A DNA stretch of 37,370 bases from Treponema sp. (GTDB taxonomy: Bacteria; Spirochaetota; Spirochaetia; Treponematales; Breznakiellaceae), in NCBI GenBank assembly GCA_031276685.1, contig JAISMQ010000071.1, positions 1 to 37,370 on the forward strand, written 5' to 3'. The position numbers and the translations under genes were made by a program. The notes under the pieces were generated by a model. That model worked only from the letters and a program-made list of their open reading frames with translations, was not told the origin of the DNA and searched no databases. Below, piece after piece: positions 1-35,794 of this stretch; the first letter of the stretch is position 1, and each line of letters opens with the position of its first letter.

Positions 1-1737
1 AGCCTGGGGGCGGAGCTTACGGTTAAGTCCTACATCGCGTATATGGAGAAGGCGAAGCCCAAGACCGTCATCGCCCAGCCCTGTCCCACCCTGGTGTCCT
101 TTATCGAAATGTACCGGCCAGAGCTGATTCCCTACCTGGCCCCCGCGGACAGCCCCATGATGCACACCATGAAGATGATCCGCCGCTTCTACACCGAATA
201 TCAAAACCACAAGATCGCCGTTATCTCCCCCTGCTATTCCAAGCGCCGGGAGTTTGATGCCTGCAAGCTGGGGGACTACAACGTGACCTTCCGTTCCCTG
301 GAAGATTATATAGACGCCCATGCCGTTGACGTGGCGCGGTTCCCCGCCGTGGAATACGACAATCCCCCTGCGGAGCGGGCGGTGCTTTTTTCTTCGCCCG
401 GCGGGCTTATGCGGACCGTGCAGCGCTACGATCAGGACGTGATGAGCCGTACCCGCAAGATTGAAGGGGTGAACGAGGTGTACCATTACTTTGCCCACCT
501 TGCCCAGGCCATTCAAACGGGGAACGCCCCGGTTTACCAGCTTATTGACTGCCTTAACTGCAGCATGGGCTGCAACGGCGGGCCGGGGACCCGGAACCGT
601 ACCAAACATCTGGACGATGTGGAATTCCTTGTGGAGAGGCGCCAAAAAGAGGCGCGGGCAAAGTACCAGAAGGGGGGCCGGCTACGGCGCTATCTGGGCC
701 GGAAAAAGCTTGAGAAAATGCTGGACAAGTACTGGACGGCGGATCTGTACAAGCGCGGCTATGTGGACCGTTCCTCGGTTTTCAAGAACCTGGTTCACGA
801 GCCCAACCGGCAGCAGATAGACGAGATATACGTTAAGCTTCATAAAACCGACCCCAGCCAAATACTTAACTGCGGGGCCTGCGGTTACCGGAGCTGCGAG
901 CAGATGGCGGTGGCGATCTTCAACGGCCTTAACAAGCCGGAAAACTGCGTCCACTACATGGAGGTAATTGCCGCCCAGCAGAGCGAAAGCGAGACCCGGC
1001 AGAAGCTTAACGCGGTGTACGACCGCACCCTGGTGGAACTGCACAAAAACCTGGACGGGATCAGCTCCCTTTCGTCAAGCATCACCGAAACCGCCAACTA
1101 TGTGTTTTCATCGACCTCCCAGATCGAAAAGATGGTGGAGGGGACCCAGGGTATCCATTCCACCCTGGAAAAGAACGCCGAGACGGTACTCCGGCTGAAT
1201 GAATCTTCCCAGGACAGCAAGGCGCGTTTCCACCGGATCGCAGAACTGATCGACGATGTGTCCGCCCAGGCGGACGAGCTGATCGAGGCATGCAGCGTTA
1301 TCGGGGACATCGCGGACCAGACCAGCATACTGGGGATGAACGCCGCCATTGAGGCCGCCCACGCCGGGGAGGCGGTGGGCAAGGGTTTCGCGGTGGTGGC
1401 GGGCGAAATACGGAAGCTGGCGGACAATTCCGGCAAGCAGGCGGTGGATATTCAAAACAGCCTGAAGAACATCAAGGTCCTGATCGACAGCTCCAAGGAA
1501 TCTTCCTCTCAGGCGGAAAACCAGTTCAACACCATTGTCGAACTGATCGCCCATGTAAAAACCGAAGAAATACGGATCAAGGGGACCATGGAAGAGCAGA
1601 CCGCCGGCAGCGCCCGGGTGATGAATTCCCTCCAGGAAATCAACAAGCTAATTTCCAAGGTAAAGGACGAATCGTCGAGCCTGCGGGAATCGGGCGAGCT
1701 GATAATCAACGACATCGGCGCGCTCAAGGTCATGTAG
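1..1737 (+). CDS. Sensory-type [FeFe]-hydrogenase-like domain fused to methyl-accepting chemotaxis (MCP) signalling domain; 5' end cut by window edge
   Basis: Frame 1 is open from nt 1, so the gene starts upstream of the track Met at 43. Degenerate H-cluster motifs are present: QPCPTL (cf. TSCCPxW), SPCYSKRRE (cf. MPCxxKxxE), [10 protein letters not shown] (cf. MxCxxGCxxGGGQ). A Cx2Cx4Cx16C motif follows (aa 277-302 of the track ORF). The C-terminal half has the invariant MCP hairpin [35 protein letters not shown]. No TM segment is visible. Confidence 0.8.
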
Positions 1738-1746
1738 GGGTTCCCA

Positions 1747-2322
1747 ATGATGACGAGCCTTTTTGGGGATCGCATGGTCTCCAAGGCAGACGGGCGGATA
1801 CGCTTCCGGGGCCTTATCGATTCGCTTGAGTCGGAAACCATCGAGGCCCAGGTGCTTGCCAATTCCCTGGGGGAACAGTACTACTGCGCGGCCCTGGGGG
1901 ACGTGCTTGGCTGTTTGCGCGCAATCATGTCGGCGGAGGTACGGGAGGCGCCCTTTGCCATGCCCTGCCTGTTCGGCCTTTCGGCGGACGAACTGCACCG
2001 CCAGACCCACGATGTAAAGGGGGCCTTTGGCCTTGCGGAACACCCGCTGCCGGATTACCGCCAGGGCCCGCTGGCGGCCCGGCTTAACACGCTGCGCGCC
2101 CGTATACGGGAAGCGGAACTCTGCGCCGTGCGGGTTTTTATCGAAGGCGGCGGCGCGAACCACGCCGACTCCGCGAACCAGGTTGGCCTCGCGAGCCAGA
2201 GCGGCCCCGCATGCTGCCGCGCCCCCCGCCGGGAAGACCTGCCCCTGGCCCTTAACCGGCTTTCCAGCGCCCTGTACTGGCTTTACTGCCGGCTGGTGGC
2301 GGGGTCACGGCCCCGCCCCTGA
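1747..2322 (+). CDS. PduO/EutT-like ATP:cob(I)alamin adenosyltransferase family protein
   Basis: N-terminus MTSLFGDRMVSKADGRIRFRGLIDSLESE resembles the (H)MT(H)L.G..LV.K.HPRI.FRG.LD.L motif of Cob_adeno_trans-type proteins. A C-terminal NRLSSALYWL-like segment is also typical. It starts 9 nt after the MCP stop. The antisense ORF 1648-2163 has an Arg/Gly/Pro-rich artefact composition. Confidence 0.55.
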   Translation: MMTSLFGDRMVSKADGRIRFRGLIDSLESETIEAQVLANSLGEQYYCAALGDVLGCLRAIMSAEVREAPFAMPCLFGLSADELHRQTHDVKGAFGLAEHPLPDYRQGPLAARLNTLRARIREAELCAVRVFIEGGGANHADSANQVGLASQSGPACCRAPRREDLPLALNRLSSALYWLYCRLVAGSRPRP

Positions 2323-8882: not shown

Positions 8883-9689
8883 TTACGCCTTAACTTCCCC
8901 AAAAAGACCGTCCCGGTAAGCGCCGATGTACTCCATGCACATCTCGTCCTTGCCCAGCAGGGCTTCGGCGGCGTAGATAAGGCCCAGCATGTCCTCGTTG
9001 GTGGGGTCGATAATGGCGCTGTCCATGCCGGCGCCCATGCAGAGGATGATAAAGCTGCGGTTGACAAACTTCCGCATCGGCAGGTTGAACGAGATATTGC
9101 TGGCGCCCGATGTGATGTGTACGTCGGGGCAGATTTCTTTTACCGTTTTGATGGTTTCGATGATCTTGGCGATACCGTCTTCGGAGGTGCAGAGCATCTC
9201 CACCACGGGGTCGACAAAGAGGTGGGACGGGTCGATCCCGTACTCCTTTGCCTTCGCGAGGATGCCCTTGAAAACGCCGATGCGCTGCTCCGCCGACTGG
9301 GGGATGCCCGTGTTGTCGCACAGCAGGGCGATGCAGTTCCATTCGGTACCCGCGATAACCGGGAAGATCTTCCCGATCTTGTCGCCTTCCAGCGACACCG
9401 AGTTTACCAGGCCCGGTTTTTTGCAGAATTTGACGGCTTCGGCAAAAACCCCGGGGTTGGGGCTGTCCAGGCAGATGGGGAGATCCGATTCCTGCTGGAC
9501 CAGATCGACCAGCCATTTAAGGGTTTCAATTTCCTGTTCGGGGGAAACCGAGGCGCAGACATCAAGGTAGGACGCCCTGGCGGCTGTCTGCTTCCGGGCC
9601 AGGCTTTTAATGAATTTTTCGTTCCGTTCGGCAATGGCGGCGCCGGTTTTGGGAATGGATCCGTTGATCTTCTCACCAATGATAATCAC
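8883..9689 (-). CDS. acsE: Methyltetrahydrofolate:corrinoid methyltransferase (AcsE/MeTr-like, pterin-binding domain)
   Basis: From GTG 9689 the protein begins (M)IIIGEKINGSIP, the same N-terminus type as MeTr (MLIIGERING...). SD GAGGTG lies 6 nt upstream. The pterin-binding TIM-barrel pattern continues throughout. The track start at 9752 adds 21 unsupported residues. Confidence 0.85.
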   Translation of the reverse strand: MIIIGEKINGSIPKTGAAIAERNEKFIKSLARKQTAARASYLDVCASVSPEQEIETLKWLVDLVQQESDLPICLDSPNPGVFAEAVKFCKKPGLVNSVSLEGDKIGKIFPVIAGTEWNCIALLCDNTGIPQSAEQRIGVFKGILAKAKEYGIDPSHLFVDPVVEMLCTSEDGIAKIIETIKTVKEICPDVHITSGASNISFNLPMRKFVNRSFIILCMGAGMDSAIIDPTNEDMLGLIYAAEALLGKDEMCMEYIGAYRDGLFGEVKA

Positions 9690-9723
9690 AGTGATCACCT
9701 CGCGTAGAATATTTGTAAGTCCT

Positions 9724-9750
9724 GCGGAAATTCCACTGTGGAATTTCCGC
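9724..9750. promoter_or_regulatory. Perfect 13-1-13 palindrome, candidate operator in the acsE / metF divergent intergenic region
   Basis: GCGGAAATTCCAC-T-GTGGAATTTCCGC was read directly. It abuts a TAATAT hexamer (minus strand, 9751-9756) and lies about 35 nt upstream of the acsE-like GTG. Confidence 0.5.
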
Positions 9751-9922
9751 ATATTACCCCGCGATCCTAGATAGCCTTACCTTCCCTGTCAATTGAAAAC
9801 GGCCGGAAACGCCAAAGTGAGCAACATAAGGCTATTTTTGAGCATAAAAATCATGGTATGACAGTAAAATCTTGCCTATAACTGACAGGGTAACTGGTAA
9901 AAACAACCGGAGGTGTCAGTCG

Positions 9923-10720
9923 ATGCAGCATCACATTCAAAATAAAATATACCACGTAGAGATTCTTCCGCCCAAGCAGGCTACCGAAAAACTGCGGGAA
10001 GATTTGAAAAGCTTTACGGACAAGTACGAAAAGGTCCGGCAGAGCGGCAGGTGCGCCTGTATTACCGACAACGCCATGGGCCTGCTGGCCTTTCAGGGCG
10101 CCGAGTGTATTGAGGAGCTGGGCCTTGCGGTGAACAAGGGGCAGGTGATGATACACCTTAACACCTTCCACACCAAAGAAAATCTCCACGAGATACTGGA
10201 TTCCTGTAAAAAGCTGGGGATCGAATACCTCCTGGTGGTGTCGGGCGACGGGTCCGACCGGCTGCCCAAGCTCCAGCCTGCCGATGTGGGCGCGGGGGAC
10301 GCGCAGTCGGTAACTTCGGTGGAGCTGCTGCGTTACATCGGCCGGGAATACCCCGGGGTCTTTACCATGGGGGTGGCCTTTAACCCCTACGAGCCGCCGG
10401 AACACGAGTTTGAAAAGCTTAGGCGGAAATTTGACGCCGGGGCGTCTTTTATCATCACCCAGCCGATTATCGAGAAAAACGCCGTCATTGACGAAATGCT
10501 TGCAAAGTACCCCGGCGTGCCGGTGATTATCGAAGCCTGGATGAGCAAGAAGATAAGCCTGCTTTCCGACGCGGTGGGCTACACCATTCCGGAAGACACC
10601 CCCTTCGATCCCATCGCAACGTTAAAGCAGATCCACCAGGACTACCCCGGCTGCGGCGTGTACCTTTCGCTGCTGGGATTTAAAACCCAGTACCCGCTGA
10701 TTTCTGAAACCTGGAAGTGA
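9923..10720 (+). CDS. metF: Methylenetetrahydrofolate reductase (MetF family)
   Basis: MTHFR blocks are present: VEILPPK (cf. FEFFPP), LVVSGDG (cf. ALRGD), FDAGASFIITQP (cf. VDAGANRAITQF), VPVIIEAWM. I set the start at ATG 9923 with SD GGAGGTG 7 nt upstream. Confidence 0.85.
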   Translation: MQHHIQNKIYHVEILPPKQATEKLREDLKSFTDKYEKVRQSGRCACITDNAMGLLAFQGAECIEELGLAVNKGQVMIHLNTFHTKENLHEILDSCKKLGIEYLLVVSGDGSDRLPKLQPADVGAGDAQSVTSVELLRYIGREYPGVFTMGVAFNPYEPPEHEFEKLRRKFDAGASFIITQPIIEKNAVIDEMLAKYPGVPVIIEAWMSKKISLLSDAVGYTIPEDTPFDPIATLKQIHQDYPGCGVYLSLLGFKTQYPLISETWK

Positions 10721-10730
10721 GGAACCAATC

Positions 10731-11519
10731 ATGAAAATAGTCGTTTGCATCAAACAGGTCCCCGGAACAACGGACGCGAAAATTGACCCGGAAACAAAGC
10801 GCATTGTCCGCGAGGGCATTGCCGCGACCATCAACCCCTTCGACACCTACGCGATAGAGGAAGCGGTGCTGTTACGGAAAAAGTACGGCGGCGAGGTTAT
10901 CGCCCTTTCCATGGGGCCGGAACGCGCCCAGGCCGTTATCCGGGAGGCCATTTCGGTGGGCGCGGACCGGGGCCTGCTGCTTTCGGACCGGGCGTTTGGC
11001 GGTTCCGATACCTGGGCGACAAGCTACGTGCTTGCCAGGGTTATCGAAAAAATAGGCGGCGTGGATCTGGTGCTGTGCGGCAGGCAGGCGATTGACGGCG
11101 ACACCGCCCAGGTGGGGCCCGGCATCGCGGCCCACCTTGACTGGCAGCTTGCCGCGCATGTCATGGCCGTGGACGCCGTGTCCGGTACGACTATTACCGT
11201 GCGGCGCATGCACGAGGACGGCTGCGATATCTGCGAGTTGGATTTTCCGGCGGTAGTTACCGTGGTAAAGGGTATTAACACGCCGAGGATCCCCACCCTT
11301 AAAGGGCGGCTGGCGGCGGAAGAAGCCGAAATTCCCGTGTGGAAGCCCGCCGACATCGGCGCCGATCCCGGCAAGATCGGCCTTGACGGTTCCCCGACCA
11401 GGGTGGTGAAAACGGAGCCGCCGCCGCCCCGGGGCGGGGTGTCCAAAAAGATAAGCGGAACCCCCGGCGGCTGCGCGGCGGAACTTTTCAAAGAACTGAA
11501 ACAGCGCGGGATACTTTAA
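10731..11519 (+). CDS. etfB: Electron transfer flavoprotein beta subunit (EtfB/FixA-like)
   Basis: MKIVVCIKQVPGT... N-terminus and the DLVLCGRQAIDGDTAQVGP segment. It starts 10 nt after the metF stop. SD GAGGAA is present. Confidence 0.92.
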   Translation: MKIVVCIKQVPGTTDAKIDPETKRIVREGIAATINPFDTYAIEEAVLLRKKYGGEVIALSMGPERAQAVIREAISVGADRGLLLSDRAFGGSDTWATSYVLARVIEKIGGVDLVLCGRQAIDGDTAQVGPGIAAHLDWQLAAHVMAVDAVSGTTITVRRMHEDGCDICELDFPAVVTVVKGINTPRIPTLKGRLAAEEAEIPVWKPADIGADPGKIGLDGSPTRVVKTEPPPPRGGVSKKISGTPGGCAAELFKELKQRGIL

Positions 11520-11536
11520 GGAGACAGGCAAACAAA

Positions 11537-12556
11537 ATGCTGATTACCAACGATAGCGACAAGCAGGATTTTTCAAACGTATGGGTCATGGCAGAGATCT
11601 CCCAGGGGAAGCTGCACCCGGTTACCCACGAGCTTTTAGGCGCCGCCCGGCGTCTCGCTTCCCTGCGGAACAAGAAGGTCGGCGCGGTACTCTTTGGCGC
11701 CAAGGTTAAGGATCTTGCGGCCTCTCTTATCCCCTACGGCGCGGACCTTGTCATTGTTGTCGAAGATCCGCGCCTGGACGGATTTAACGACGAACTGGAA
11801 GGGCGGCTTTTGAAGCGGCTCATTGAAAAGTACAGGCCCGAGACCGTGCTTTACGGCGCGACCACGCGGGGAAGGGCCCTGGCGCCCCGGGCGGCGGTCA
11901 TGTGCAACTGCGGCCTTACCGCAGACTGCACCGGGCTCGATATCGATCCGGAAAACGGCGACCTACTCCAGACCCGCCCGGCCTTTGGCGGCAACATTAT
12001 GGCTACCATCCGCTGCTCAAAACACCGCCCGCAGATGGCCACCGTAAGGCCGCAGGTTATGAAGGCCCCCGCCCCGGATTCAGGACGCCGGGGGGAGATC
12101 CTTACCGAATCCGTAGACACATCCGAGGCGGAAAAGATCAAACGGATTCTCAAATACATCCGCAGCACCGAAGCGACGGTGAACCTGGCGGAAGCCCGGA
12201 TCATCGTTTCCGGCGGCCGGGCCATGAAGGGGAGCGAAGGCTTCAAGGTCCTTGAAGCCCTGGCGGCCCAGTTTGGCGGCGCGGTGGGCGCGAGCCGCGC
12301 GGCGGTTGACGCCGGGTGGATCTCTTACGCCCACCAGGTAGGCCAGACCGGGCAGACCGTACAGACCAAAGTCTACATCGCCTGCGGCATCTCCGGCCAG
12401 ATTCAGCATCTGGTGGGCATGCAGTCCTGCGAGACCATTATCGCCATCGACAAGAACCCGGACACCCCGATGATGCAAATGGCGGATATCGCGGTTTCCG
12501 GCGATCTTTTTGAAGTTGTCCCCGCGCTGACGGAACTTCTGAAAAAAAACTCATAG
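11537..12556 (+). CDS. etfA: Electron transfer flavoprotein alpha subunit (EtfA/FixB-like)
   Basis: GLTADCTGLDI, TRPAFGGNIMATI, and the C-terminal FAD-binding block VYIACGISGQIQHLVGM. Confidence 0.92.
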   Translation: MLITNDSDKQDFSNVWVMAEISQGKLHPVTHELLGAARRLASLRNKKVGAVLFGAKVKDLAASLIPYGADLVIVVEDPRLDGFNDELEGRLLKRLIEKYRPETVLYGATTRGRALAPRAAVMCNCGLTADCTGLDIDPENGDLLQTRPAFGGNIMATIRCSKHRPQMATVRPQVMKAPAPDSGRRGEILTESVDTSEAEKIKRILKYIRSTEATVNLAEARIIVSGGRAMKGSEGFKVLEALAAQFGGAVGASRAAVDAGWISYAHQVGQTGQTVQTKVYIACGISGQIQHLVGMQSCETIIAIDKNPDTPMMQMADIAVSGDLFEVVPALTELLKKNS

Positions 12557-12565
12557 GAGGCTGCC

Positions 12566-14239
12566 ATGTTAACCGACGCTGAAATCGCCCGGGCGGCGGC
12601 TCTGCAGCCGATTGCCGGCATAGCGGAAAAAATCGGCATCGCAAGCGACGATCTGGATTTTTACGGGAAGTACAAGGCCAAACTTTCGCGGGCGCTGCTC
12701 TCCCGGCTTTTTGCGAAACAGGAAAGCGGCAGGCTTATCCTGGTAACGGCTGTCAACCCTACGCCGGCGGGGGAAGGCAAAACTACCACCAGCGTGGGCC
12801 TTGCAATGGCCCTTAACCGCATCGGCAAGAAAACGGTCCTAGCCCTGCGGGAGCCATCCCTGGGGCCCGTGTTCGGCGTAAAGGGCGGCGCCGCCGGCGG
12901 CGGCTACTCACAGGTGCTGCCCATGGAGGAGATCAACCTTCACTTTACCGGGGACTTCCACGCCATTACCAGCGCGAACAACCTGCTTTCCGCGATGATC
13001 GACAATTCCCTCCAGCAGGGCAACCCTTTGGGGATCGATCCCAAGCGCATCCTCTTTGCGCGGGTCCTTGACATGAACGACCGCGCGCTGCGGAACGTTA
13101 TCGTGGGCCTTGGCGCAAAAGCTGACGGCGTTACCCGGCAGGAACGTTTTACGATCACGGTGGCGTCGGAAGTTATGGCGATACTGTGCCTGGTGACGGA
13201 TCTTGCGGATCTGAAAAAGCGCCTGGCGGGGATCCTGGTTGGCTATACCTACGAGGGGAAGCCCGTGTACTGCCGGGACCTGGGGGCGGAAGGATCCATG
13301 GCGGCCCTGCTGCGGGACGCCCTGCAGCCGAATCTGGTGCAGACCATCGAGGGGACCCCCTGCCTTATCCACGGCGGGCCCGTCGCCAATATCGCCCACG
13401 GCTGTAACTCGGTGCTTGCCACCAGGGCGGCCCTTAAGCTTGGGGACTACGCCATTACCGAAGCGGGTTTTGGCGCGGACCTGGGGGCGGAAAAGTTTAT
13501 CGATATCAAGTGCCGGTCGGCGGGGCTTGCCCCTTCCGCCGCCGTCCTGGTAGCCACGGTGCGGGCGCTCAAGTACAACGGCGGCGTGTCCAAGAATCAC
13601 CTTAAAGAGCCGAACCCCCAGGCCCTGCGGAAGGGTCTGCCGAACCTCCAGGCCCACCTTGAAAACCTTGCCAAGTTCGGCGTACCCGTCGTGACGGCTA
13701 TCAACCACTTCTACACGGACACCGATGAGGAGATCGACATTGTAAAAAAAGCGGCGGAAGCCGCCGGCTCGGAAGCGGTGGTGTCCAAAGCCTTCGCCGA
13801 AGGCGGCAAGGGCGCCGAAGAACTGGCGAAGGCGGTCGTCCGGGCGGCCGAGTCGGGCAAGGCCGCCTGCCGCCAGCTCTACGATACGGCGCTGCCGGTA
13901 AAAGAAAAAATCGCCATACTCGCCAAAGAGATCTACGGCGCGGGCGACGTTGTGTACAGCGCCGATGCCGAAAAGGGCGTCGCGGAGATCGACAAGCTCG
14001 GCCTTTCGGGGCTTCCGGTCTGCGTGGCGAAAACCCAATACTCCCTTTCGGACGATGCCGCGCTTCTGGGCCGCCCGCAGGGCTTTACCCTCCACGTCCG
14101 GGAACTGCGGCCCTCGGCGGGCGCGGGCTTCCTTGTGGCCGTTACCGGGGAAATCATGACCATGCCCGGCCTCCCCAAGCGTCCGGCGGCCCTGGACATT
14201 GACGTGGACGAAGCGGGAAATATCCTCGGTATCTTTTAA
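12566..14239 (+). CDS. fhs: Formate--tetrahydrofolate ligase
   Basis: Full-length FTHFS (557 aa) with the [15 protein letters not shown] nucleotide-binding motif. SD GGAGG is present. Confidence 0.97.
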
Positions 14240-15060
14240 TGGCTATTCTGTCCCCGGCGCAGATCTTCGATCACGCCGTTGCCGCCGGGGTGGCGAAAAC
14301 CGGCAGGAAGTTTTTAAGCACCCTTGTGCTGGCCTTCCTTGCGGGGGCCTTTATCGCCTTTGGCGCGGAAGGTTCCAACATGGCGGCCTTCAACCTCCTT
14401 TCAAAGCCCGAAACCTACGGGCTGGGCCGGGCCCTGGCGGGCGCCGTTTTCGGTATCGGTTTGATGCTGGTTCTGATCGCCGGGGGCGAACTTTTTACGG
14501 GCAACTGCCTTATCATCGCGGGGGTTCTTGACCGCAAAGTAAGCTGTTCAAAAATGCTCCTTAACTGGCTCGTGGTGTACGCGGGCAACTTCGCGGGCGC
14601 CCTGTGCATCGCTTATTTTATGAACGTATCGGGGTTGTTTTCCGGGGGCGGCGGCCTTTTGGGCGGCATGACCATAAGAATAGCCGCCGGAAAAACGGCC
14701 CTTTCGTTCTGGCCCGCCTTTGTCCTGGGGGTCCTGTGCAATTGGATGGTGTGCCTTGCGGTGTGGGTTTCATACGCGGCGGACGAACTTCCGGGGAAAC
14801 TTCTGGCCTGTTTTTTTGTCATCTTCCTCTTTGTCACCTCGGGCTTTGAACACAGCGTCGCCAACATGTACTACGTGCCCGCCGGCATTTTCGCAAAGGC
14901 AAACGGCGCCTGGGCCGCCGTTTCGGGCGTCCCGGCGTCCCAGCTTGAATCCCTTAACTGGGGCAATTTTGTGGTAAAAAACCTTTTCCCCGTTACCCTG
15001 GGGAACATTGCCGGCGGTTCCGGTATGGTAGGCGCGCTGTACTGGCTTGGATTGAAATAG
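14239..15060 (+). CDS. fdhC: Formate/nitrite transporter family channel (FdhC/FocA-like)
   Basis: FNT family: six hydrophobic helices and the FEHSVANMYY motif. The ATG overlaps the fhs TAA (TAATG). Confidence 0.9.
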   Translation: MAILSPAQIFDHAVAAGVAKTGRKFLSTLVLAFLAGAFIAFGAEGSNMAAFNLLSKPETYGLGRALAGAVFGIGLMLVLIAGGELFTGNCLIIAGVLDRKVSCSKMLLNWLVVYAGNFAGALCIAYFMNVSGLFSGGGGLLGGMTIRIAAGKTALSFWPAFVLGVLCNWMVCLAVWVSYAADELPGKLLACFFVIFLFVTSGFEHSVANMYYVPAGIFAKANGAWAAVSGVPASQLESLNWGNFVVKNLFPVTLGNIAGGSGMVGALYWLGLK

Positions 15061-15095
15061 GATAAACTGGATGAACGAAAAGGAGGGCAGATACC

Positions 15096-15962
15096 ATGGC
15101 GATTATCATTGACGGCAAGGCCATAGCCGCAAAAGTCCGGGACGATGTGAGGCTCCGCACGCAAAAACTAACGGAGCGGGGGATACGGCCCTGCCTGGCG
15201 GTGATCCTTGTCGGAGAAAACCCCGCGTCGGTATCCTACGTGACCGGCAAAGAAAAAGCCCTGGCGGAAGCGGGAATGGACGGGCGGGACATCAGGCTTC
15301 CTGCGGCCACCAGCGAAGCGGAACTCCTTGCCCTTATCGCCGCCCTGAACGCCGACAGCGCGGTACACGGGATTCTTGTGCAGCTCCCGCTTCCCCCGCA
15401 CATCAGCGAGGACCGGGTAATAAACGCCATCAGCCCCGAAAAAGACGTGGACGGTTTTCACCCCGTGTCGGTGGGGAACATGGTCCTGGGCAGGCCCGGC
15501 TTCCTGCCCTGTACGCCCAACGGGATCGTGTACCTGCTCAAGGAGATGCAGATCAAAACCGCCGGGGCCCACGCGGTTATCCTGGGCAGGTCGAACATCG
15601 TGGGGAAGCCCCTGGCCAGCCTGCTTATCAGGCGGGACGTGAACGCCACGGTCACCGTCTGCCACACGGGGACGCCGGATTTTTCACTCTACACAAAACA
15701 GGCGGACATCCTTATTGCCGCGGTGGGAAAGCCCGGCCTGGTGACCGCCGGCATGGTAAAGCCCGGCGCGGCGGTTATCGATGTCGGCGTCAACCGCGTG
15801 CCGGATTCCTCCCGGAAATCGGGCTTCGTCCTCCGGGGCGATGTTGACTACGACGCCATCGAAAAAATCGCGGGCTGGATCACCCCCGTGCCCGGCGGCG
15901 TCGGCCCCATGACCATCGCCATGCTCATGCGGAACGTAGTCGAAGCCGCCGAGACCCCGTAG
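15096..15962 (+). CDS. folD: Bifunctional methylene-THF dehydrogenase / methenyl-THF cyclohydrolase
   Basis: Typical FolD sequence (SYV.GKEKA, GILVQLPLP, DVDGFHP, GRSNIVGKP, PVPGGVGPMT). Confidence 0.95.
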   Translation: MAIIIDGKAIAAKVRDDVRLRTQKLTERGIRPCLAVILVGENPASVSYVTGKEKALAEAGMDGRDIRLPAATSEAELLALIAALNADSAVHGILVQLPLPPHISEDRVINAISPEKDVDGFHPVSVGNMVLGRPGFLPCTPNGIVYLLKEMQIKTAGAHAVILGRSNIVGKPLASLLIRRDVNATVTVCHTGTPDFSLYTKQADILIAAVGKPGLVTAGMVKPGAAVIDVGVNRVPDSSRKSGFVLRGDVDYDAIEKIAGWITPVPGGVGPMTIAMLMRNVVEAAETP

Positions 15963-15997: not shown

Positions 15998-16978
15998 TTA
16001 AGACACCCCGCCCGGTTCGCGGATCGCAAGCTTGTCGCAGCGCCGGAAGCCGTGTTCCGCCATGTACAGGGCGATGCCGTCGATAATTTCCGTCATGGCG
16101 CAGGGATTGGCGAAGGTTGCCGATCCAACCTGGACAGCCGCAGCCCCGGCCAGAAGAAATTCCAGGGCGTCCTCCGCGTTGGCAATGCCCCCCATGCCCA
16201 CGATGGGGACGGGCGGCCGGGGGGCGCCGGGGGGCCGCAGGGCTTCCCACAGTTCCCAGACCATACGCAGGGCGATGGGCCTGACGGCGGGGCCGGAAAG
16301 GCCGGCGCTGGTGTTGTCGAAAACAGGCCGCCGCAGGCGGGTATCAATCGCCATGGCTTTGAAGGTGTTTACCAGTGAAAGGGCGTCCGCGCCGGATTTG
16401 ACGCAGGCGCGGGCCACCGCCGCCAGGTCCGGGGCGTTGGGGGAAAGCTTTACCATAAGCGGCTTGTCCGGGGCCGCCCCGCGCACCCGTCCGGTTACAA
16501 GCGCGGCGGCCTCCGCCTCCAGGCCAAAGGCCATGCCCCCGGCTTTTACGTTGGGGCAGGAAATGTTGAGTTCGATCATGTCAATCGCCGCATGGTTAAG
16601 GAGGGCCGCCCCCTCCGCGTATTCCTCCGCCGTGGAACCCGAAAGATTGGCGATAACCGCCGGGCCCAGGCTGCGGAGGGCGGGGAGTTCGTGTTCGATA
16701 AAAGCCGGAATACCGGGGTTCTCCAGGCCGATGGAATTCATCAGCCCCGCCGGGGTTTCGTGGAGCCGCTGCCCGCCGTTGCCCGGCCGCGGATTAAGGG
16801 TAAGGCCCTTGGTGCAGATACCGCCAAGCCGGGCAATATCCAGGAGCCCCGCGTACTCCCTGCCGTAACCAAAGGTCCCGGACGCGGCAATCACGGGGTT
16901 TCTGAACAGGACCCCTGCGATGGTAACCGACAGGTCGGGGCCGGGCCGGCCGGGAAGAGGCGGGGTAGGATCCGTCAC
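15998..16978 (-). CDS. pyrD: Dihydroorotate dehydrogenase 1B catalytic subunit
   Basis: NPVIAASGTFGYG and the class-1 DHOD pattern. I set the start at GTG 16978, which overlaps the pyrK TGA (GTGA). The track extension to 17167 runs inside pyrK. Confidence 0.9.
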   Translation of the reverse strand: MTDPTPPLPGRPGPDLSVTIAGVLFRNPVIAASGTFGYGREYAGLLDIARLGGICTKGLTLNPRPGNGGQRLHETPAGLMNSIGLENPGIPAFIEHELPALRSLGPAVIANLSGSTAEEYAEGAALLNHAAIDMIELNISCPNVKAGGMAFGLEAEAAALVTGRVRGAAPDKPLMVKLSPNAPDLAAVARACVKSGADALSLVNTFKAMAIDTRLRRPVFDNTSAGLSGPAVRPIALRMVWELWEALRPPGAPRPPVPIVGMGGIANAEDALEFLLAGAAAVQVGSATFANPCAMTEIIDGIALYMAEHGFRRCDKLAIREPGGVS

Positions 16979-17820
16979 GGGTTCGCCCCCGTCGATGCGC
17001 TGAGGCCCGCCGCCGGAAAAATATCCGCCGCCGGGAAGATCGGGCCGTCGGCGCAGCAGCGCCGGTTCCCCGCCGCCGTCTTGACCGTGCAGCCCAGGCA
17101 GGCCCCCACGCCGCAGGCCATGGATCGCTCCATGCTGACATAGCAGGGGACCCCCGCAATCCGGCACTGTTCCGCCACCGCCCGGAGCATGGGCAGGGGG
17201 CCGCAGGCGAACACGCAGGGACGGCCCCGGTACTCCGCAAAATCCGGTATCCGCCCCCGGCGGCCCTCGCTCCCGTCCTCGCTGGCGACCAGCAGGGACG
17301 CCGCCCGGTCCCGCAGTGATTCCAGCCCAAAGGAAGCGGACCTGAACCCGGCGTACAGATCGAACCCGCCGCCCAGCTCGTCCCCCAGGGCCGCCAGCGG
17401 GGCAATGCCGATACCCCCGCCCACCAGGGCCGGGGCCCCGCCCAGGACCGCTTCGCCTGGCGGGGTATCCCCGTCCCCGGTTTCGCCGCGCGGAATGGCC
17501 TGCGGCAGAAAATCCTTCCAGCGGTTACCCAGAGGCCCGGTAAGGGCCGCCCCTTCCCCCGCCCGCAGTTGGCCAAGCTCCCCGGTCCCCCGGCCTTTTT
17601 TCAGCACCAGAAAACTAAGCCGGCGGGAAACCCCGTCCCAGCGGTAGACGCTGATGGGCCGGGGGAGAAAGGGGCTCCCCCTCTGTGCCCTGATCATGAA
17701 AAACTGCCCCGCCGCCGGCGCCGGGCCGGGCCATTCAAAATCGAGGCGGAAAACGGCGGCGCCAAGATCGGCCCTGGCGATCAGCGGGCAGATTAGGTAG
17801 CGCCTGGGGGAAGGAGCCAT
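16975..17820 (-). CDS. pyrK: Dihydroorotate dehydrogenase electron-transfer subunit
   Basis: FNR-like fold plus a C-terminal 2Fe-2S cysteine cluster (MACGVGACLGCTV...C). Confidence 0.9.
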   Translation of the reverse strand: MAPSPRRYLICPLIARADLGAAVFRLDFEWPGPAPAAGQFFMIRAQRGSPFLPRPISVYRWDGVSRRLSFLVLKKGRGTGELGQLRAGEGAALTGPLGNRWKDFLPQAIPRGETGDGDTPPGEAVLGGAPALVGGGIGIAPLAALGDELGGGFDLYAGFRSASFGLESLRDRAASLLVASEDGSEGRRGRIPDFAEYRGRPCVFACGPLPMLRAVAEQCRIAGVPCYVSMERSMACGVGACLGCTVKTAAGNRRCCADGPIFPAADIFPAAGLSASTGANP

Positions 17821-17829
17821 AGGCCAAAT

Positions 17830-18795
17830 CTAGTGAAAAGCCCGGGGCCGGACAAGGCCGGCGGCCCGGATGGCGTCCCGCATGGTTATGGCGGCCCGGC
17901 GGGCCGCTTCTGCGGCAAAGCGGTTGTCCGCTTCGCAGCCCGGCCCTTCGCAGGCCCCGCCTGCGGCCTTGAGTTCGGCGGTCCAGGCCCGCAGGATGGA
18001 ACGGGAGGCGTTTACTACCCCGCCGTTGCCGTCCCGCAGCAGCAAAGCGGCGTCTTCCGCCGCGCCGCCCTGGGCGCCGTAACCGGGAATAAGGAAAAAC
18101 AGATTGGCGTAGCGGGACCGGATCGCCGCCGCTTCTTCGCGTTCGGCGCCGGACTTGGGGTCCGCGCCTACCACCGCCCCAAATGCGCCGTAGCCGTGGC
18201 GTCCCGGGCGGGCTTCCGCCAGGGCGGAAAGTTTGGCCCCCACCGCGTCGTACAGGCGGAACGGGGCTGCGTTGTCCGTACCGGGGGGGGGCTTTAGTTC
18301 AAGGTACTCAAAGTCCCGCATCCCCCCGTTGCTGGTACGCATCAGCACAAAGGCGCCTTTTCCCGATTCTTCGGCGCAGGAAACCCAGGGTTCTACGGAG
18401 TCCATCCCCATGTAGGGGGAAAGGGTGACAAAGTCCGCCTCAAAATCGCCCTGGAAATGGGCCTGGGCGTAACGCCGGGCCGTATCGGCAATGTCCCCCC
18501 GTTTGATGTCGGCAATTACCAGCGCGCCCCGGTCCCGGATACAGCGCAGGGTTTCCGCGTAGACCCCAAGCCCCGCAAGGCCCATCGCCTCGTAGTAGGC
18601 GATCTGCACTTTGTAGCAGGCCGCCGCGTCGATGGTGGCGTCGATCAGGGCCTTGTTGTAGGCCAGCACGGCGGCGGCGTCCGAAGCGGCGCTGCCGCGC
18701 TCCAGGGGCGGCACGTATTCCGCGGCGGTGTCCAGGCCCACGCACACGGGGCCCCGGTCCGCGACCGCTTCGTAAAGTTTGTCCATGTTGTACAT
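17830..18795 (-). CDS. pyrF: Orotidine 5'-phosphate decarboxylase (long, type 2)
   Basis: VCVGLD..., ADIKRGDI motifs. I set the start at ATG 18795 with SD AGGAGG (18801-18806). The track start at 18954 overlaps pyrI. Confidence 0.88.
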   Translation of the reverse strand: MYNMDKLYEAVADRGPVCVGLDTAAEYVPPLERGSAASDAAAVLAYNKALIDATIDAAACYKVQIAYYEAMGLAGLGVYAETLRCIRDRGALVIADIKRGDIADTARRYAQAHFQGDFEADFVTLSPYMGMDSVEPWVSCAEESGKGAFVLMRTSNGGMRDFEYLELKPPPGTDNAAPFRLYDAVGAKLSALAEARPGRHGYGAFGAVVGADPKSGAEREEAAAIRSRYANLFFLIPGYGAQGGAAEDAALLLRDGNGGVVNASRSILRAWTAELKAAGGACEGPGCEADNRFAAEAARRAAITMRDAIRAAGLVRPRAFH

Positions 18796-18836
18796 CGGGC
18801 CCTCCTGTGATCCGCAGTTTTGCAAAACCCGGCCCG

Positions 18837-19271
18837 CTACCGGAAATCCCCCGCGAACCTGATCTCGTCGCAGTATTCGCAGCGGTAGGTCCGCTGCCGG
18901 GGATTCTCCAGGTGGAAGATGTGGGGGGCGTAGCTTTCCGTAGAGGTGATGCACCGGGGGTTTTTGCAGATCAGCACATTTTCTACCCGTTCGGGCAGTT
19001 TAAGCTTGATCTTTTCGGTGATAACTTCGTTTTCGATGATATTCACCGTGATATTGGGATCGATAAGGCCCAGCACGTCAAAGTTAATGCTGATCGTGTT
19101 ATCGATCTTGATGATGTCCTTTTTCCCCATCTCCCTGGAATTGGCGTTTACCACAAAGGCAACGCCGTAACATGCTTTGTCCAGCCCCAGCCAGTTGAAT
19201 ATTTTGATTCCCAGGCCCGCCTTGATATGATCGATAACGATACCGTTTTTTATTTGGTCTATGTTAAGCAT
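18837..19271 (-). CDS. pyrI: Aspartate carbamoyltransferase regulatory subunit
   Basis: [11 protein letters not shown]-terminal domain and a C-terminal Zn domain CKNPRCIT...CEYC. It overlaps the pyrB end by 8 nt. Confidence 0.92.
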
Positions 19272-20214
19272 GGTTTACCCCCAATACGCTGGAAATTAAG
19301 GCCATCCGGATATACATGCCGTATTTGGCCTGCCTAAAGTACGCCGCCCTGGGGTCCGCGTCCACCTCGACGGCGATTTCGTTAACGCGGGGCAGGGGGT
19401 GCAGGATAATAAGATCGTCCTTCGCCTTTTCAAGCTTGTCGGGGCTTAAAACGTAGGTATCTTTCAGGCGTATGTAGTCTTCCTCGTTAAAGAAACGTTC
19501 CCGCTGCACCCTGGTCATGTACAGCACATCCAGGACGGGCATGGCTTCCTCGAAACTGCCGATTTCCCGGTAGGCGATGCCCTGCTGTTCCAGAAGCCGG
19601 GTGATGTACTCAGGCAGCCTGAGTTCGCCGGGGGAAATAAAAATCATGGTAAGATTCCCGTAGCGGGCCAGGGCCTTTGCCAGGGAGTGAACCGTGCGGC
19701 CAAACTTTAGGTCTCCGCAAAAACCCACCGTAAGGCCCTGGAGCGTGTCCCGTAATTTTTCCTCCCCTTTCCCCCGGAGCCGTTTGATGGTCAAAAGATC
19801 CGTCAGGGTCTGGGTTGGGTGGTGGTGGCCGCCGTCCCCGGCGTTGATGACCGGAATATCCGCGCAGCGGGAGGCCAGCAGGGCCGCCCCCTCCTTGGGA
19901 TTCCGCATGACGATAAGGTCCGCGTAACAGGCCACCGTCCGTACCGTGTCCGCCAGGCTTTCCCCCTTGGCGGCGGAGCTGGAACCCGGCTCCGCGAATC
20001 CCAGGCAGCTCCCCCCCAGGCGCAGCATCGCCGCTTCGAACGAAAGCCGGGTCCGGGTGCTGGGTTCAAAGAACAGCGTGGCCAGAACTTTTCCCCGGCA
20101 GCTTTGCCGGAGGAAGCCCTTGTCTTCCTCGATCCGTTGCGCCAGGTTAAACAGGCCTTCCATCTCCTCAAGGCTAAAGTTCCCCGGCTCCACCAGGGAT
20201 CGTCCTTCAAGCAT
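19264..20214 (-). CDS. pyrB: Aspartate carbamoyltransferase catalytic subunit
   Basis: STRTRLSFE and HPTQ motifs. I set the start at ATG 20214 with SD AGGAGGGG directly upstream. The track start at 20292 runs through a terminator hairpin. Confidence 0.93.
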
Positions 20215-20222
20215 CACCCCTC

Positions 20223-20375
20223 CTAGCAGTTTGCCGCAGCAGGCCGCTTTGGCATAAAAAAAAGCCGCCCAAAGGCGGCTTTCCTGCAACACAAAATAGA
20301 AGCTTTTTCAAAACCGGCCGGGTTTTGAAACCGGCCCCGCAGACAAAAAATTCCATGGTCCTTGTGGTTCTTCAT
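20223..20375 (-). CDS. Candidate 50-aa pyrBI leader peptide (hypothetical)
   Basis: ATG-to-TAG ORF ([50 protein letters not shown]) that crosses both leader hairpins. It stops inside the pyrB SD. No good SD of its own. An alternative frame runs 20356 to 20207. Confidence 0.3.
20256..20280 (-). terminator. Rho-independent terminator (attenuator) in the pyrB leader
   Basis: The minus strand reads AGCCGCC-TTTG-GGCGGCT followed by T8, ending about 40 nt upstream of the pyrB ATG. Confidence 0.7.
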
Positions 20376-20511: not shown

Positions 20512-20520
20512 AAGGCGAAG

Positions 20521-20665
20521 TTTTCAGGGCGGGGTGAGCCCGGCAGACCCGGAAGGGTCCCGGCAATTCCCCACCGGCGGTATAGCCCGCGAGTCCGGCC
20601 CCGGCGGGGCAGGATTGAACCGGTGGAATTCCGGCGCCGACGGTACAGTCCGGACGGAAGAAAAA
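20521..20665 (+). promoter_or_regulatory. FMN riboswitch (RFN element) aptamer
   Basis: Conserved RFN blocks were read directly: CAGGGCGGGGTG...AATTCCCCACCGGCGGTATAGCCCGCGAG...AGGATTGAACCGGTGGAATTCCGGCGCCGACGGTACAGTCCGGACGGAAGAAAA. P1 pairs TTTTC (20521-20525) with GAAAA (20660-20664). Confidence 0.85.
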
Positions 20666-20705
20666 CGACGACCGCGTACAGGCGATCTTGAATTTCCGAA
20701 GACAG

Positions 20706-20739
20706 GCCCTTGAGGAGCGATCCTTGGGGGCTTTTTTTT
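20706..20739 (+). terminator. Riboswitch expression-platform terminator
   Basis: GCCCTTGAGGA-GCGA-TCCTTGGGGGC (11 bp including G-U pairs) followed by T8, located 40 nt before the rfuA-like start. Confidence 0.8.
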
Positions 20740-20778
20740 GGGCTTGCGGGCGCGGCGGGCGGCATCAGGAGGTGCATT

Positions 20779-21810
20779 GTGAAAAGGGGACTGCTGACGG
20801 TCATGGCCCTGCTTGCGGCGGGGCAGGTTTTTGCGGCGGGAATGAGGGAAGACAGGGGGGAGGGGGATTTTTCGGTGCTGGTCTACATCACCGGCGTGGT
20901 GGCCGGCAGCCCCCCCTACGAACTGCTGGTAGAGGGCGCCCAGGAATTTGCCGCGTCCCATTCCGGCGTTACGATCAAGGTCTACGAGGCGGGCTTTAAC
21001 CAGGCGGAGTGGGTAGAACAGCTTACCTCGCTGGTGGCGGGGGGCGCGTTTGATCTGGTCCTTGGCTCCAACCCTTCGCTGCCCGACATTTGCGTAAACG
21101 TGGGGAAGAAATTCCCCGGTCAAAAATTCGTCATTACCGATGCGGAGTTCCGGGGCAACCCCCAGATCAGCACCTACCTCTACAACCAGTACGAACAGTC
21201 CCTCTACCTGGGCTACCTGGCGGGGCTTGTAACCACCAGTTCCATGCCCCATGCGAACCGGACGAAAAAAATCGGGGTTATCGCCGCCCAGGAGTACCCC
21301 ATCCTGAACAAGCATATCGTCCCCGGTTTTCTGGACGGGGCCCGCCTGGCGGACCCGGCGATAGAGCTTGACTTCCGGGTTATCGGCAACTGGTTCGACG
21401 CCAGCAAAGCTGCGGAACTTGCCGGGGGCATGATCGATGCCGGCGTGGACGTGTTCGCCTCCATCGCGGGCGGCGCGGCCCAGGGGCTGATCCGCAGCGC
21501 CGCCGGGCGGGGGGCCTACATGGTGTGGGACAACACCAACGAGTACCGGCAGGCGCCGGGGATCATCGTGGGCTGCGGGTTTATGGCGCAGAAAAAACTG
21601 GCCGAGGAGATCCTTGCCGATGCCGTCGCGGGGAAGATCAGCTACGGGTCTTCCCGTACTGTCGGCGTGAGGGAAGGCTACCTGGATTTTATCGGCGGCG
21701 ATCCTGATTACATCGCCTCCCTGCCCCAGGATATTCGGGACAAGTTCGGCGCTTTTATGGACGATATTCGCGCCGGGCGGGTTGGGTACACGGTCCCTCC
21801 CCTGCGCTGA
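20779..21810 (+). CDS. rfuA: BMP-family ABC substrate-binding protein, predicted riboflavin-binding (RfuA-like)
   Basis: BMP/PnrA-like pattern (GFNQ, DLVLG, FVITD, IGVIAAQEYP, NWFD, DVFASIAGGAAQG). I set the start at GTG 20779 after SD AGGAGGTG. Signal peptide MKRGLLTVMALLAAGQVFAAG has no Cys, so it is not a lipoprotein. An FMN riboswitch lies upstream. Confidence 0.8.
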   Translation: MKRGLLTVMALLAAGQVFAAGMREDRGEGDFSVLVYITGVVAGSPPYELLVEGAQEFAASHSGVTIKVYEAGFNQAEWVEQLTSLVAGGAFDLVLGSNPSLPDICVNVGKKFPGQKFVITDAEFRGNPQISTYLYNQYEQSLYLGYLAGLVTTSSMPHANRTKKIGVIAAQEYPILNKHIVPGFLDGARLADPAIELDFRVIGNWFDASKAAELAGGMIDAGVDVFASIAGGAAQGLIRSAAGRGAYMVWDNTNEYRQAPGIIVGCGFMAQKKLAEEILADAVAGKISYGSSRTVGVREGYLDFIGGDPDYIASLPQDIRDKFGAFMDDIRAGRVGYTVPPLR

Positions 21811-21823
21811 CCGGGCGGACGGC

Positions 21824-23382
<1,559 letters not shown>

Positions 23383-23386
<4 letters not shown>

Positions 23387-24591
23387 GCGGCGATAGCGGC
23401 GGTCTGGGGGGCTGGCGTACCAGGCAGCCTTCGCCGGGGCTGGGGGGCCAGCGGGGGCCGCCGGGAACGGCCCGGGCGAACACGACCGCCCCCGGCCTGC
23501 GGAGTCCGGAGTTCCCCCGCTACCCAAGCCTCTACACCGCTGCCGGAATGGCCCTTATCCTTGTCATTTCCCTTGCCCTGGTTGTCGCCCTGGCCTTCCT
23601 TTTCAGCAAGAGCCCCGGCAGGACGCTGTGGTTTTTTTTCCTGGGCCCCCTGCAGAATCGCTACCAGTCCGGCAATATGCTCAACGGCGCCGTGCCCCTG
23701 ATCTTCGGCGGCCTGGGGGTCTGCATCGCCATGAAGGCGAACAGCTTTAACCTGGGGGGCGAGGGGCAGATCTACGCCGGGGCTTTTGTCTCCACCCTTG
23801 CCGCGGTCGCCCTGGGGGACTGGGCCGGGCCGGCGCTGCCAGGCATGCCTGCGGCCCTGTCCGCGATCCTGGGCTGGTTCGCGGTTGCGGCGGCCCTGCT
23901 GGCGGGGGCGGTCTTTGCCGGCGCGGCGGCCTGGGTTTCCGGTTTCTGCCGGGCCAAATGGAACACCAGCGAGCTGATCACCAGCTTTCTTGTTTCCGGC
24001 TCCCTGGTCCTGATCGTCAACTACCTTGTAACCGGGCCCTTTATGGATCGGGAAACCAACCTCCTTTCCACGGAAAAAATACCGGAGCTTTTCCGGCTCC
24101 CGCTGATTCTTCCCCCCTCGAATTTAAGCGCCGCCCTTTACGCCGCCCTGGGGGCGGTAGTCCTGGTTTCGCTGTTTTTGTCGCGGACCCGGACGGGTTA
24201 CGAGATCCGCATGACCGGAAGCAACGAGCTGTTCGCCCGCTACGGGGGCATCGAGACGGGGCGGATCACCATGCTTGCCATGTTTCTCAGCGGCGCCTTC
24301 TACGGCCTGGCGGGGGGCATTTCCGTATACGGGACCTACTACGCCACGATAAAGGAATTCTCATCCGGCCTGGGCTGGAACGGCCTGGCGGCGGCCCTTA
24401 TCGCCCGGTTCCGCCCCGCCCTTGTTATCCCTGCGGCGGTGTTCTTTGCCTGGATCAGCGCCGGCGCCCGTATGGCTATGCAGTTCTCCGATGTCACGCT
24501 GGAACTGGCCTCCATCGTGCAGGGGCTTATCCTGCTGCTGGCGACAAGCCAGGTGCTGCTGGATCTTTTTAAAAGGAGTAGCCCCCGGTGA
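23383..24591 (+). CDS. rfuC: ABC transporter permease (RfuC-like)
   Basis: BMP-type permease with multiple TM helices. GTG 23383 overlaps the rfuB TGA (GTGA). The first 55 aa are Gly/Pro/Arg-rich, so ATG 23548 (347 aa) is an alternative start. Confidence 0.8.
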
Positions 24592-33174: not shown

Positions 33175-33244
33175 ATTTTCACGCTCCTCGCGGTTGAAAT
33201 TACACGTCAGCGGGGCACCGCCCCTTATCAGCAGGGCACGCCCC

Positions 33245-35131: not shown

Positions 35132-35176
35132 GCAAATTCCTTAGTGGGGTTCCTGTGTAACAGGCCCCTAGACAAC

Positions 35177-35395: not shown

Positions 35396-35397
35396 GT

Positions 35398-35790: not shown

Positions 35791-35794
35791 GCCG

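Follow-up and report, generated by a model that had tools for sequence, protein, structure and literature searches.

A Treponema contig encodes a further putative sensory [FeFe] hydrogenase joined to a soluble chemoreceptor hairpin, a candidate cytoplasmic receptor for H2

Among the [FeFe] hydrogenases, HydDB (Sondergaard et al. 2016) defines a Group C2, designated 'chemotactic (putative)', for which it states the hypothesis of H2-dependent chemotaxis (PMC5037454); the definition is restated elsewhere (PMC9431212), and the sensory role is called putative in the review literature (PMC8924675). Here we describe a gene at the start of a 37,370-nt stretch of Treponema sp. DNA (assembly GCA_031276685.1, contig JAISMQ010000071.1, positions 1 to 37,370 of the forward strand, hereafter "the window"), which encodes a putative sensory hydrogenase input module of the Group C type, as judged from its sequence, on a soluble methyl-accepting chemotaxis protein (MCP). 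As in HydDB Group C2, the H-domain lacks the proton-relay Cys, a 4-Cys motif lies C-terminal to it, the output is an MCP and a role in H2 chemotaxis is proposed; nothing categorical sets the protein apart and, by its features, it is a further member. The MCP output is the feature that defines C2, with histidine kinases defining C1 and phosphatases C3. The preliminary description of this DNA identified the class correctly and overstated its novelty, since the class had already been defined in HydDB in 2016 and the concept is not new. Treponemal hydrogen sensors were reportedly catalogued by Ballor, Paulsen and Leadbetter in 2012. Previous descriptions may be lacking for four of the features reported below: two extra invariant cysteines, the loss of both proton relays known so far, a residue inserted in the hairpin tip and the statistics on modularity. 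The interpretation we favor, with moderate confidence, is that the protein serves an H2-consuming acetogenic treponeme as a cytoplasmic chemoreceptor for H2, with a conformational signal that would pass via the helix of the 4-Cys domain into the MCP bundle.

Biochemical data for the sensory type come only from TmHydS, which is PAS-coupled, and TamHydS, which has no output domain; both bind an H-cluster, show low activity, stabilize reduced states and tolerate CO (PMC8163306, PMC10055695). TmHydS (Thermotoga maritima, Group C, M2f) shares with the window protein the H-domain, the Cx2Cx4Cx16C motif and the loss of the relay Cys and of both Met, and with its full-length homologues an N-terminal ferredoxin-like F-domain, and it has the low activity and putative sensory role that we propose here, but its output is a PAS domain and its active-site positions hold Ala, Gly and Ser, versus an MCP and Pro, Ser and Leu in the window protein. 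TamHydS (Thermoanaerobacter mathranii, Group D, M2e) has the same M353Ser/M497Leu pair and a C-terminal 4-Cys domain, but it carries no fused output, has Ala at C299 (as does TmHydS; PMC8163306, PMC10407848) and retains the relay residue E252, which is Leu in the window protein. In AlphaFold2 (AF2) homodimer models of TamHydS the protomers align along the C-terminal helix (PMC13104023). The protein P0019 of Treponema primitia ZAS-2 (693 aa, CP001843.1, 2700674-2702755), named by NCBI '[Fe-Fe] hydrogenase large subunit C-terminal domain-containing protein', is 67% identical over the whole visible part of the window protein and has the same domain order, motifs, 7-residue tip and arm lengths; its neighborhood differs, with an elongation factor G gene downstream, whereas an adenosyltransferase-like gene and an ABC transporter follow in the window. 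The regulatory [NiFe] hydrogenases (HoxBC/HupUV with HoxJ; HydDB 2b) are likewise slow, CO- and O2-insensitive H2 sensors coupled to a signaling protein, but their metal site and fold are unrelated and they act on transcription via a histidine kinase, not on chemotaxis. In HemAT, Aer2 and Aer, too, a cytoplasmic sensor domain with a cofactor sits directly on the hairpin of an MCP; they differ in that haem or flavin adenine dinucleotide (FAD) is held in globin or PAS folds and O2 or redox is sensed, whereas an H-cluster is predicted in the window protein.

The features of the gene and its product are as follows:
1..1737, plus strand: hydrogenase-MCP gene, the 3' 578 codons plus stop, an open frame.
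4..585, plus strand: part of the [FeFe]-hydrogenase H-domain, Pfam Fe_hyd_lg_C (PF02906), from the profile, PDB alignments and the fold match of a 90% identical homologue.
865..951, plus strand: C-terminal Fe-S domain (PF04060) with Cx2Cx4Cx16C at nt 871-948, from the profile; all four Cys are invariant.
949..1734, plus strand: MCP helical hairpin, beginning directly after the last Fe-S Cys; MCPsignal covers nt 1198-1650.
1339..1422, plus strand: hairpin-tip (CheA/CheW-contact) motif, in which one residue is inserted by comparison with the canonical GExGRGF.
1591..1599, plus strand: EEQ of MEEQTAGS, aligned with the Tsr stretch ASDEQSRG, the sole methylation-site-like motif.

Frame 1 is uninterrupted from nt 1 to the stop at 1735-1737, and the gene is cut by the edge of the window and contig. 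Homologues of 694 aa align from residue 117, placing the first ~116 codons upstream of the window, where they would encode a 2x[4Fe-4S] ferredoxin domain and the beginning of the H-domain; in homologues up to 90% identical this region includes the F-domain typical of Group C, with 8 invariant Cys. Pfam profiles matched the window protein at aa 2-195 (Fe_hyd_lg_C, E 6.7e-25, 88.6 bits where the cut-off is 22.1), aa 289-317 (FeS, PF04060, E 3.7e-9) and aa 400-550 (MCPsignal, PF00015, E 3.7e-24), each above its gathering score. Consistent with these matches, searches of NCBIfam and of PDB sequences related the N-terminal half to [FeFe] hydrogenases, with partial matches to TIGR04105 and TIGR02512 in NCBIfam, and the C-terminal half to chemoreceptors, the matches to Aer and Aer2 coming through the MCP part only. 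No HAMP or PAS match was found in the window protein with Pfam, and no transmembrane segment was apparent in a hydropathy scan (the Kyte-Doolittle mean over 19 residues peaks at 0.99 for the window protein and at 1.29 for full-length homologues). By these sequence measures the protein is soluble and cytoplasmic, and the full-length order, as read from the homologues, is predicted to be a 2x[4Fe-4S] ferredoxin domain, the H-domain, the 4-Cys Fe-S domain and the MCP hairpin. The preliminary description had anticipated the hydrogenase-family and MCPsignal matches, both of which are significant, and the absence of transmembrane and HAMP segments, which was borne out; the remaining cluster ligands of the full-length protein, which it had marked for follow-up, are represented by the eight invariant ferredoxin Cys of the homologues.

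The protein database search yielded over 100 homologues that are 56-90% identical and carry the same set of Pfam domains; at full length they have ~690-700 aa and begin with two complete [4Fe-4S] ferredoxin motifs. Many 662/663-aa JGI calls (for example P0002, P0004 and P0006) start at an internal Met and cut the first of these motifs; the upstream frame, open at 2620-2712 of the JGI metagenome contig L002, encodes the missing motif and reveals the true start. Because such calls begin internally, domain surveys that use them would miss part of the F-domain.

To assign the residues of the active site, a full-length homologue was aligned by phmmer to HDCR HydA2, HydABC HydA1 and DdH, and positions are given in CpI numbering; the assignments at E279 and S319 were read from the alignments by eye. 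The motifs in the window are:
73..87, plus strand: L1 motif AQPCP, replacing TSCCP, from the alignment; Q-P-C is invariant in 110 homologues.
148..162, plus strand: DSPMM, replacing KSPQQ; the diiron-pocket Ser and Pro are kept and CpI Q325 is replaced by Met.
226..252, plus strand: L2 motif SPCYSKRRE, replacing MPCxxKxxE; M353 is replaced by Ser, and the motif retains its Cys ligand, the Lys that binds CN (K358) and the Glu.
547..588, plus strand: L3 motif, in which an additional invariant Cys (550-552) precedes the two Cys ligands (559-561 and 571-573).

The four H-cluster Cys align with CpI C300, C355, C499 and C503, and their codons lie where the preliminary description had placed them, at 82-84 (in IAQPCP), 232-234 (in ISPCYSK), 559-561 and 571-573. 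The first of them, Cys28 (nt 82-84), corresponds to a ligand of the [4Fe-4S] cubane of the H-cluster. The three changes read earlier from the motifs alone (TSCCP to QPCP and the two replacements of Met, by Ser and by Leu) correspond, by alignment to solved hydrogenases, to C299 to Pro (the proton-relay Cys), M353 to Ser and M497 to Leu, the last within a change of ExMACxxGC to DCLNCSMGC. They match, as had been claimed, the substitutions published for putative sensory hydrogenases, and since the enzymes with such substitutions at C299, M353 and M497 bind an H-cluster and react with H2, the match counts in favor of the H2 chemoreceptor reading (PMC8163306, PMC10055695). Pro at the C299 position occurs in ~10% of the HydDB sensory sequences (PMC10055695). 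Elsewhere in the site, GGVMEA is changed to GGLMRT, with V423 replaced by Leu, E279 is replaced by Ser, S319 of the proton pathway is replaced by Pro two residues upstream of DSPMM, and E282 aligns with a non-acidic residue, the last from an alignment read by eye only. The Group A proton-transfer pathway C299-E279-S319-E282 is therefore not kept, with Pro, Ser and Pro invariant at its first three positions. Nor is the Group D relay: TamHydS E252 is located at the CpI V423 position (PMC10407848), where an invariant Leu (in PGGLMRT) is found here. Given C299P, E279S and S319P together with Leu at the E252 position, both the Group A and the Group D proton relays are lost.

Conservation was counted in an alignment of 110 homologues, in which the four H-cluster, four C-terminal and eight ferredoxin Cys are all invariant. 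Also invariant are Q-P-C (the next Pro in 101 of the 110), S-P-C-x-x-K-x-x-E, D-S-P-M, F-x-x-P-G-G-L and D-C-L-x-C-x-x-G-C-N. The same holds for the diiron-pocket residues K358, P231 (which lies upstream of the window and was observed in homologues only), S323/P324 and F417 and for the GG of the GGVM loop, whose last Gly is invariant and whose first Gly is present in 108/110. The persistence of ligands and pocket at 56-90% identity argues for purifying selection on the cofactor pocket. In addition, there are two extra invariant cysteines, one encoded at window nt 550-552 (in DCLNC), three residues before the third H-cluster ligand, and the other upstream of the window, at Cys33 of the 90% identical homologue P0003 (in CPAKMCNDG), four residues after the first ferredoxin motif; both are invariant in close homologues and nearly so across relatives coupled to MCPs, histidine kinases and SpoIIE phosphatases. 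The AF2 model of P0003 (mean pLDDT 76, ~90 in the H-domain) gave CbA5H, DdH, HydABC and CpI as its top Foldseek matches in the PDB (E 4.6e-15 to 1e-11); no structure of a sensory hydrogenase (HydS) was found in the PDB by sequence or by fold.

The Cx2Cx4Cx16C motif at nt 871-948 is exactly as the preliminary description gave it, and its further observation that this motif, which precedes a PAS domain in HydS, leads here into a coiled coil and an MCP was borne out as well; the tip motif lies inside the range of about nt 1300-1437 given there for the hairpin. In the AF2 model of P0003, a helix (residues 433-515) follows immediately on the last Fe-S Cys (432) and leads into the hairpin, so that in the model the Fe-S domain and the MCP are joined by a continuous helix. 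In the window protein the N-arm extends over 141 aa as far as the tip Glu and the C-arm over 121 aa, lengths which suggest ~17 heptads per arm. In 101 of 120 close homologues the tip Glu likewise lies 141 aa from the last Fe-S Cys, and in nearly all of the 120 the C-arm is 121-123 aa; with these fixed arm lengths, the Fe-S domain comes to sit ~20 residues above the bundle's top. The one-residue insertion in the tip is common to 117/120 of the close Treponema hydrogenase-MCPs, and the canonical length is found in 42 of 43 more distant MCP-coupled relatives and in three other MCP genes of the examined Treponema loci. We infer from its alignment with Tsr that the EEQ at 1591..1599 may be a methylation site. 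Two other placements of the protein were considered and rejected: Group D, ruled out by the Leu at the E252-equivalent position and by the presence of an output domain, and the PAS-coupled HydS type (M2f, as TmHydS), given that no PAS match was found and the helix begins right after the last Cys.

The sensor part alone (window 1-990) was searched against 1.84 billion cluster representatives, and 1873 relatives were obtained with E <= 1e-3, 420 of them with E <= 1e-30. Outputs were then tallied among the best 150 clusters (50% identity clusters, 39-62% identical to the query):
MCP output: 68/150 clusters.
Histidine kinase output, often PAS-HisKA-HATPase-REC: 55/150 clusters.
PAS-SpoIIE phosphatase output: 15/150 clusters.
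No recognizable output, or PAS only: 12/150 clusters.

The MCP, histidine kinase and SpoIIE outputs correspond to HydDB C2, C1 and C3, respectively, and the AQPCP / SPCxxK / DCLNC signature is common to all output classes. The fusion of one sensor cassette to three kinds of output indicates a portable input module. In a neighbor-joining tree of the sensor part, the MCP-coupled sensors were clustered, not monophyletic (13 state changes versus ~41 when shuffled). Just one MCP fusion among the best 150 clusters also carries a PAS domain, and since the MCP fusions nearly all lack one, PAS appears dispensable for coupling the sensor to a coiled-coil output. Distant MCP-coupled relatives (P0146, P0153 and P0219) were seen in Candidatus Cloacimonadota, in Rarispira (Spirochaetia) and in a metagenome-assembled genome (MAG) labelled 'archaeon', the last of which could be a binning error or a real archaeal instance.

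The surroundings of the gene bear on the likely host:
1747..2322, plus strand: PduO-type cobalamin adenosyltransferase-like open reading frame (ORF), 191 aa (PF01923, E 6.1e-10), 9 nt after the receptor stop.
8883-15962: Wood-Ljungdahl methyl-branch cluster, with its pterin-binding methyltransferase-like protein on the minus strand.

Downstream of the receptor gene lie the adenosyltransferase-like ORF, a sugar-type ABC transporter, sigma-54 and a hibernation factor. The adenosyltransferase-like ORF is probably co-transcribed with the receptor gene, and no functional link between the two is evident; it is a neighbor in 4/83 loci, including L002. The Wood-Ljungdahl cluster encodes the pterin-binding protein, methylenetetrahydrofolate reductase, an electron-transfer flavoprotein beta/alpha pair, formyltetrahydrofolate synthetase, a formate/nitrite transporter and FolD. 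The flavoprotein pair, located between the reductase and the synthetase genes, is a possible electron carrier for the reductase. Because the window carries these methyl-branch genes, the host is plausibly an H2-consuming homoacetogenic treponeme, a reading from gene content. The contig L002, whose receptor is an 87% identical homologue, has the same order of receptor, adenosyltransferase-like gene, sigma-54, DinB and Wood-Ljungdahl genes. When the ORFs within 7 kb of the gene were clustered in 83 loci, the most recurrent neighbor family was a MalK-type ABC ATPase, in only 12/83, and the lack of conserved neighbors points to a stand-alone receptor gene. In species-representative genomes 220 loci were matched, and the best 80 of these are nearly all from Treponema/Spirochaetaceae MAGs with isolate names resembling termite-gut bins; rumen and digester MAGs and T. 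primitia ZAS-10 are also among the best 80, in which some Treponema MAGs contribute two loci.

We propose the following mechanism for a cytoplasmic H2 chemoreceptor. H2 would diffuse into the cell and bind the H-cluster; because every known proton-relay residue is missing, the site would be expected to turn over slowly and to act as an equilibrium reporter of the H2 partial pressure. At high H2, the H-cluster would be reduced together with an N-terminal cluster, and a conformational change would pass through the C-terminal Fe-S domain, whose last helix is predicted to run on unbroken into the N-arm of the MCP four-helix bundle of a homodimer, and so alter the control of CheA at the hairpin tip. 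By analogy with TamHydS, this signal is more likely conformational than a redox change of the C-terminal cluster, since H2 does not reduce the TamHydS C-terminal cluster (PMC13104023). The homoacetogenic, H2-consuming treponeme would then swim up H2 gradients. The analysis shows the domain architecture, the conservation of ligands and pocket, the solubility, the continuity of the helix (in the model of a 90% identical homologue) and the acetogen gene context; we infer that an H-cluster is incorporated, that H2 is what stimulates the receptor, in which direction the cells respond and that methylation serves adaptation.

Several observations weigh against this H2 chemoreceptor. No biochemical or behavioral experiment on an MCP-linked hydrogenase was found in the searchable full-text literature, and we know of no enzyme in which Pro at the C299 position has been studied. 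The M497L variant of CpI does not hold the diiron site (PMC10055695), yet TamHydS has a natural Leu at this position and binds the diiron site (PMC8163306). The behavior of the TamHydS C-terminal cluster, from a 2026 study (PMC13104023), makes the relay step mechanistically unclear. The tip reads GEAVGKGF (window 1369-1392), one residue longer than GExGRGF, and beyond the one EEQ further methylation sites are not evident in the window protein. Finally, there are no hydEFG, catalytic hydrogenase or che genes within the 37-kb window, and no che or hyd genes recur near the gene in the 83 loci, that is, there is no linkage.

The main rival, which we consider unlikely but to be taken seriously, is a redox or energy-taxis receptor whose N-terminal ferredoxin-like clusters exchange electrons with the ferredoxin pool, so that the receptor reports redox poise. 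Cytoplasmic MCPs commonly mediate energy taxis, and the 2x[4Fe-4S] F-domain is invariant in the homologues; in relatives this domain is the catalytic electron path (PMC8163306). H2 reduces an N-terminal cluster of TamHydS, which implies that the two signals are coupled (PMC13104023). On this reading the H-cluster would be only an electron sink or source, or the signal would integrate H2 against the ferredoxin pool and not report H2 by itself. For redox sensing, however, a plain ferredoxin or PAS-FAD domain would be enough, and the diiron-pocket residues are invariant; the site has also lost every proton-relay residue while staying intact in other respects, which fits a dedicated H2 reporter. 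It is improbable, in our view, that the protein senses O2 or CO as a repellent to steer cells from the microoxic gut wall. H-clusters do react with both gases, and TamHydS forms an air-oxidized state (Hair) and has an altered CO affinity (PMC8163306), but nothing specific points to O2 or CO sensing, irreversible damage by O2 is ill-suited to a reversible chemoreceptor, and the sensory-type enzymes that have been studied are less, not more, CO-sensitive (PMC8163306).

The invariant pocket residues also speak against a domain that lacks the diiron subcluster and is only an Fe-S scaffold, similar to Nar1/NARF, or that is a low-activity metabolic hydrogenase tethered to chemoreceptor arrays. The destabilizing effect of Leu at M497 on the diiron site of CpI (PMC10055695) favors the scaffold, but TamHydS with the same Ser/Leu pair binds a functional H-cluster (PMC8163306), and the module is fused to three kinds of signaling output; these alternatives therefore seem to us very improbable. 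The truncation of the gene at the contig end is the sole reason to consider an assembly chimera or pseudogene, an explanation of negligible probability that we exclude given that the frame is open to a normal stop and the architecture recurs in >100 proteins and in 80+ genome loci, including the closed chromosome of T. primitia ZAS-2. Returning to the H2 chemoreceptor, we also put forward, tentatively and in the knowledge that it is rather doubtful as a whole, the joint proposal that the AQPCP/SPCxxK/DCLNC cassette would be a distinct type of sensory H-cluster site (marked by Pro in place of the relay Cys, by the absence of both the Group A and the Group D path, and by two extra Cys) and that its MCP versions in Treponema, with their 7-residue tip and rigid 141-residue spacer, would form a dedicated cytoplasmic H2-taxis array.

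The remainder of the window contains:
15998-20292, minus strand: pyrimidine biosynthesis block with a pyrD-type dihydroorotate dehydrogenase, a PyrK-like Fe-S subunit, orotidine monophosphate decarboxylase and aspartate carbamoyltransferase.
20516-20669: flavin mononucleotide (FMN) riboswitch (Rfam RF00050, 83 bits).
20710-21810, 21782-23386 and 23383-25463: downstream of the FMN riboswitch, a Bmp-family lipoprotein, a double ABC ATPase and two permeases, respectively.
32440-35950, minus strand: jag, yidC, yidD, rnpA and rpmH.

The layout of riboswitch, Bmp lipoprotein and ABC genes resembles that of the spirochaetal RfuABCD riboflavin uptake system. Two ORFs without family matches, at 20524-21873 (minus strand, 449 aa) and 25891-27402 (plus strand, 503 aa), are antisense to the Bmp lipoprotein and malic enzyme genes and are probably spurious in this 60% GC genome. 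An intergenic stretch of ~700 bp with an AT-rich patch at ~36360-36460 follows the rpmH-jag block, and a lipoprotein-like ORF from 36641 runs off the window end (37370); no dnaA is visible in the window.

H2 is the central intermediate of termite-gut and other anaerobic food webs, in which steep H2 gradients occur, and the searchable literature contains no demonstration, for any organism, of a receptor for H2 chemotaxis. The MCP-fused sensory hydrogenases, abundant among the nearest sensor relatives as tallied above, are obvious candidates for such a receptor, and their coiled-coil output, set directly on the 4-Cys domain, offers a cleaner system than the PAS-coupled HydS in which to study how the state of the H-cluster becomes a signal. 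To these the window adds one sequence and a suggestive acetogen context. It is probable that this receptor lets a spirochete of the termite-gut type swim along H2 gradients. If the joint proposal of a distinct cassette and an H2-taxis array is true, it would provide the first H2 chemoreceptor defined at the molecular level and would show that all Group C sensors transmit their signal through the 4-Cys domain and not through PAS.

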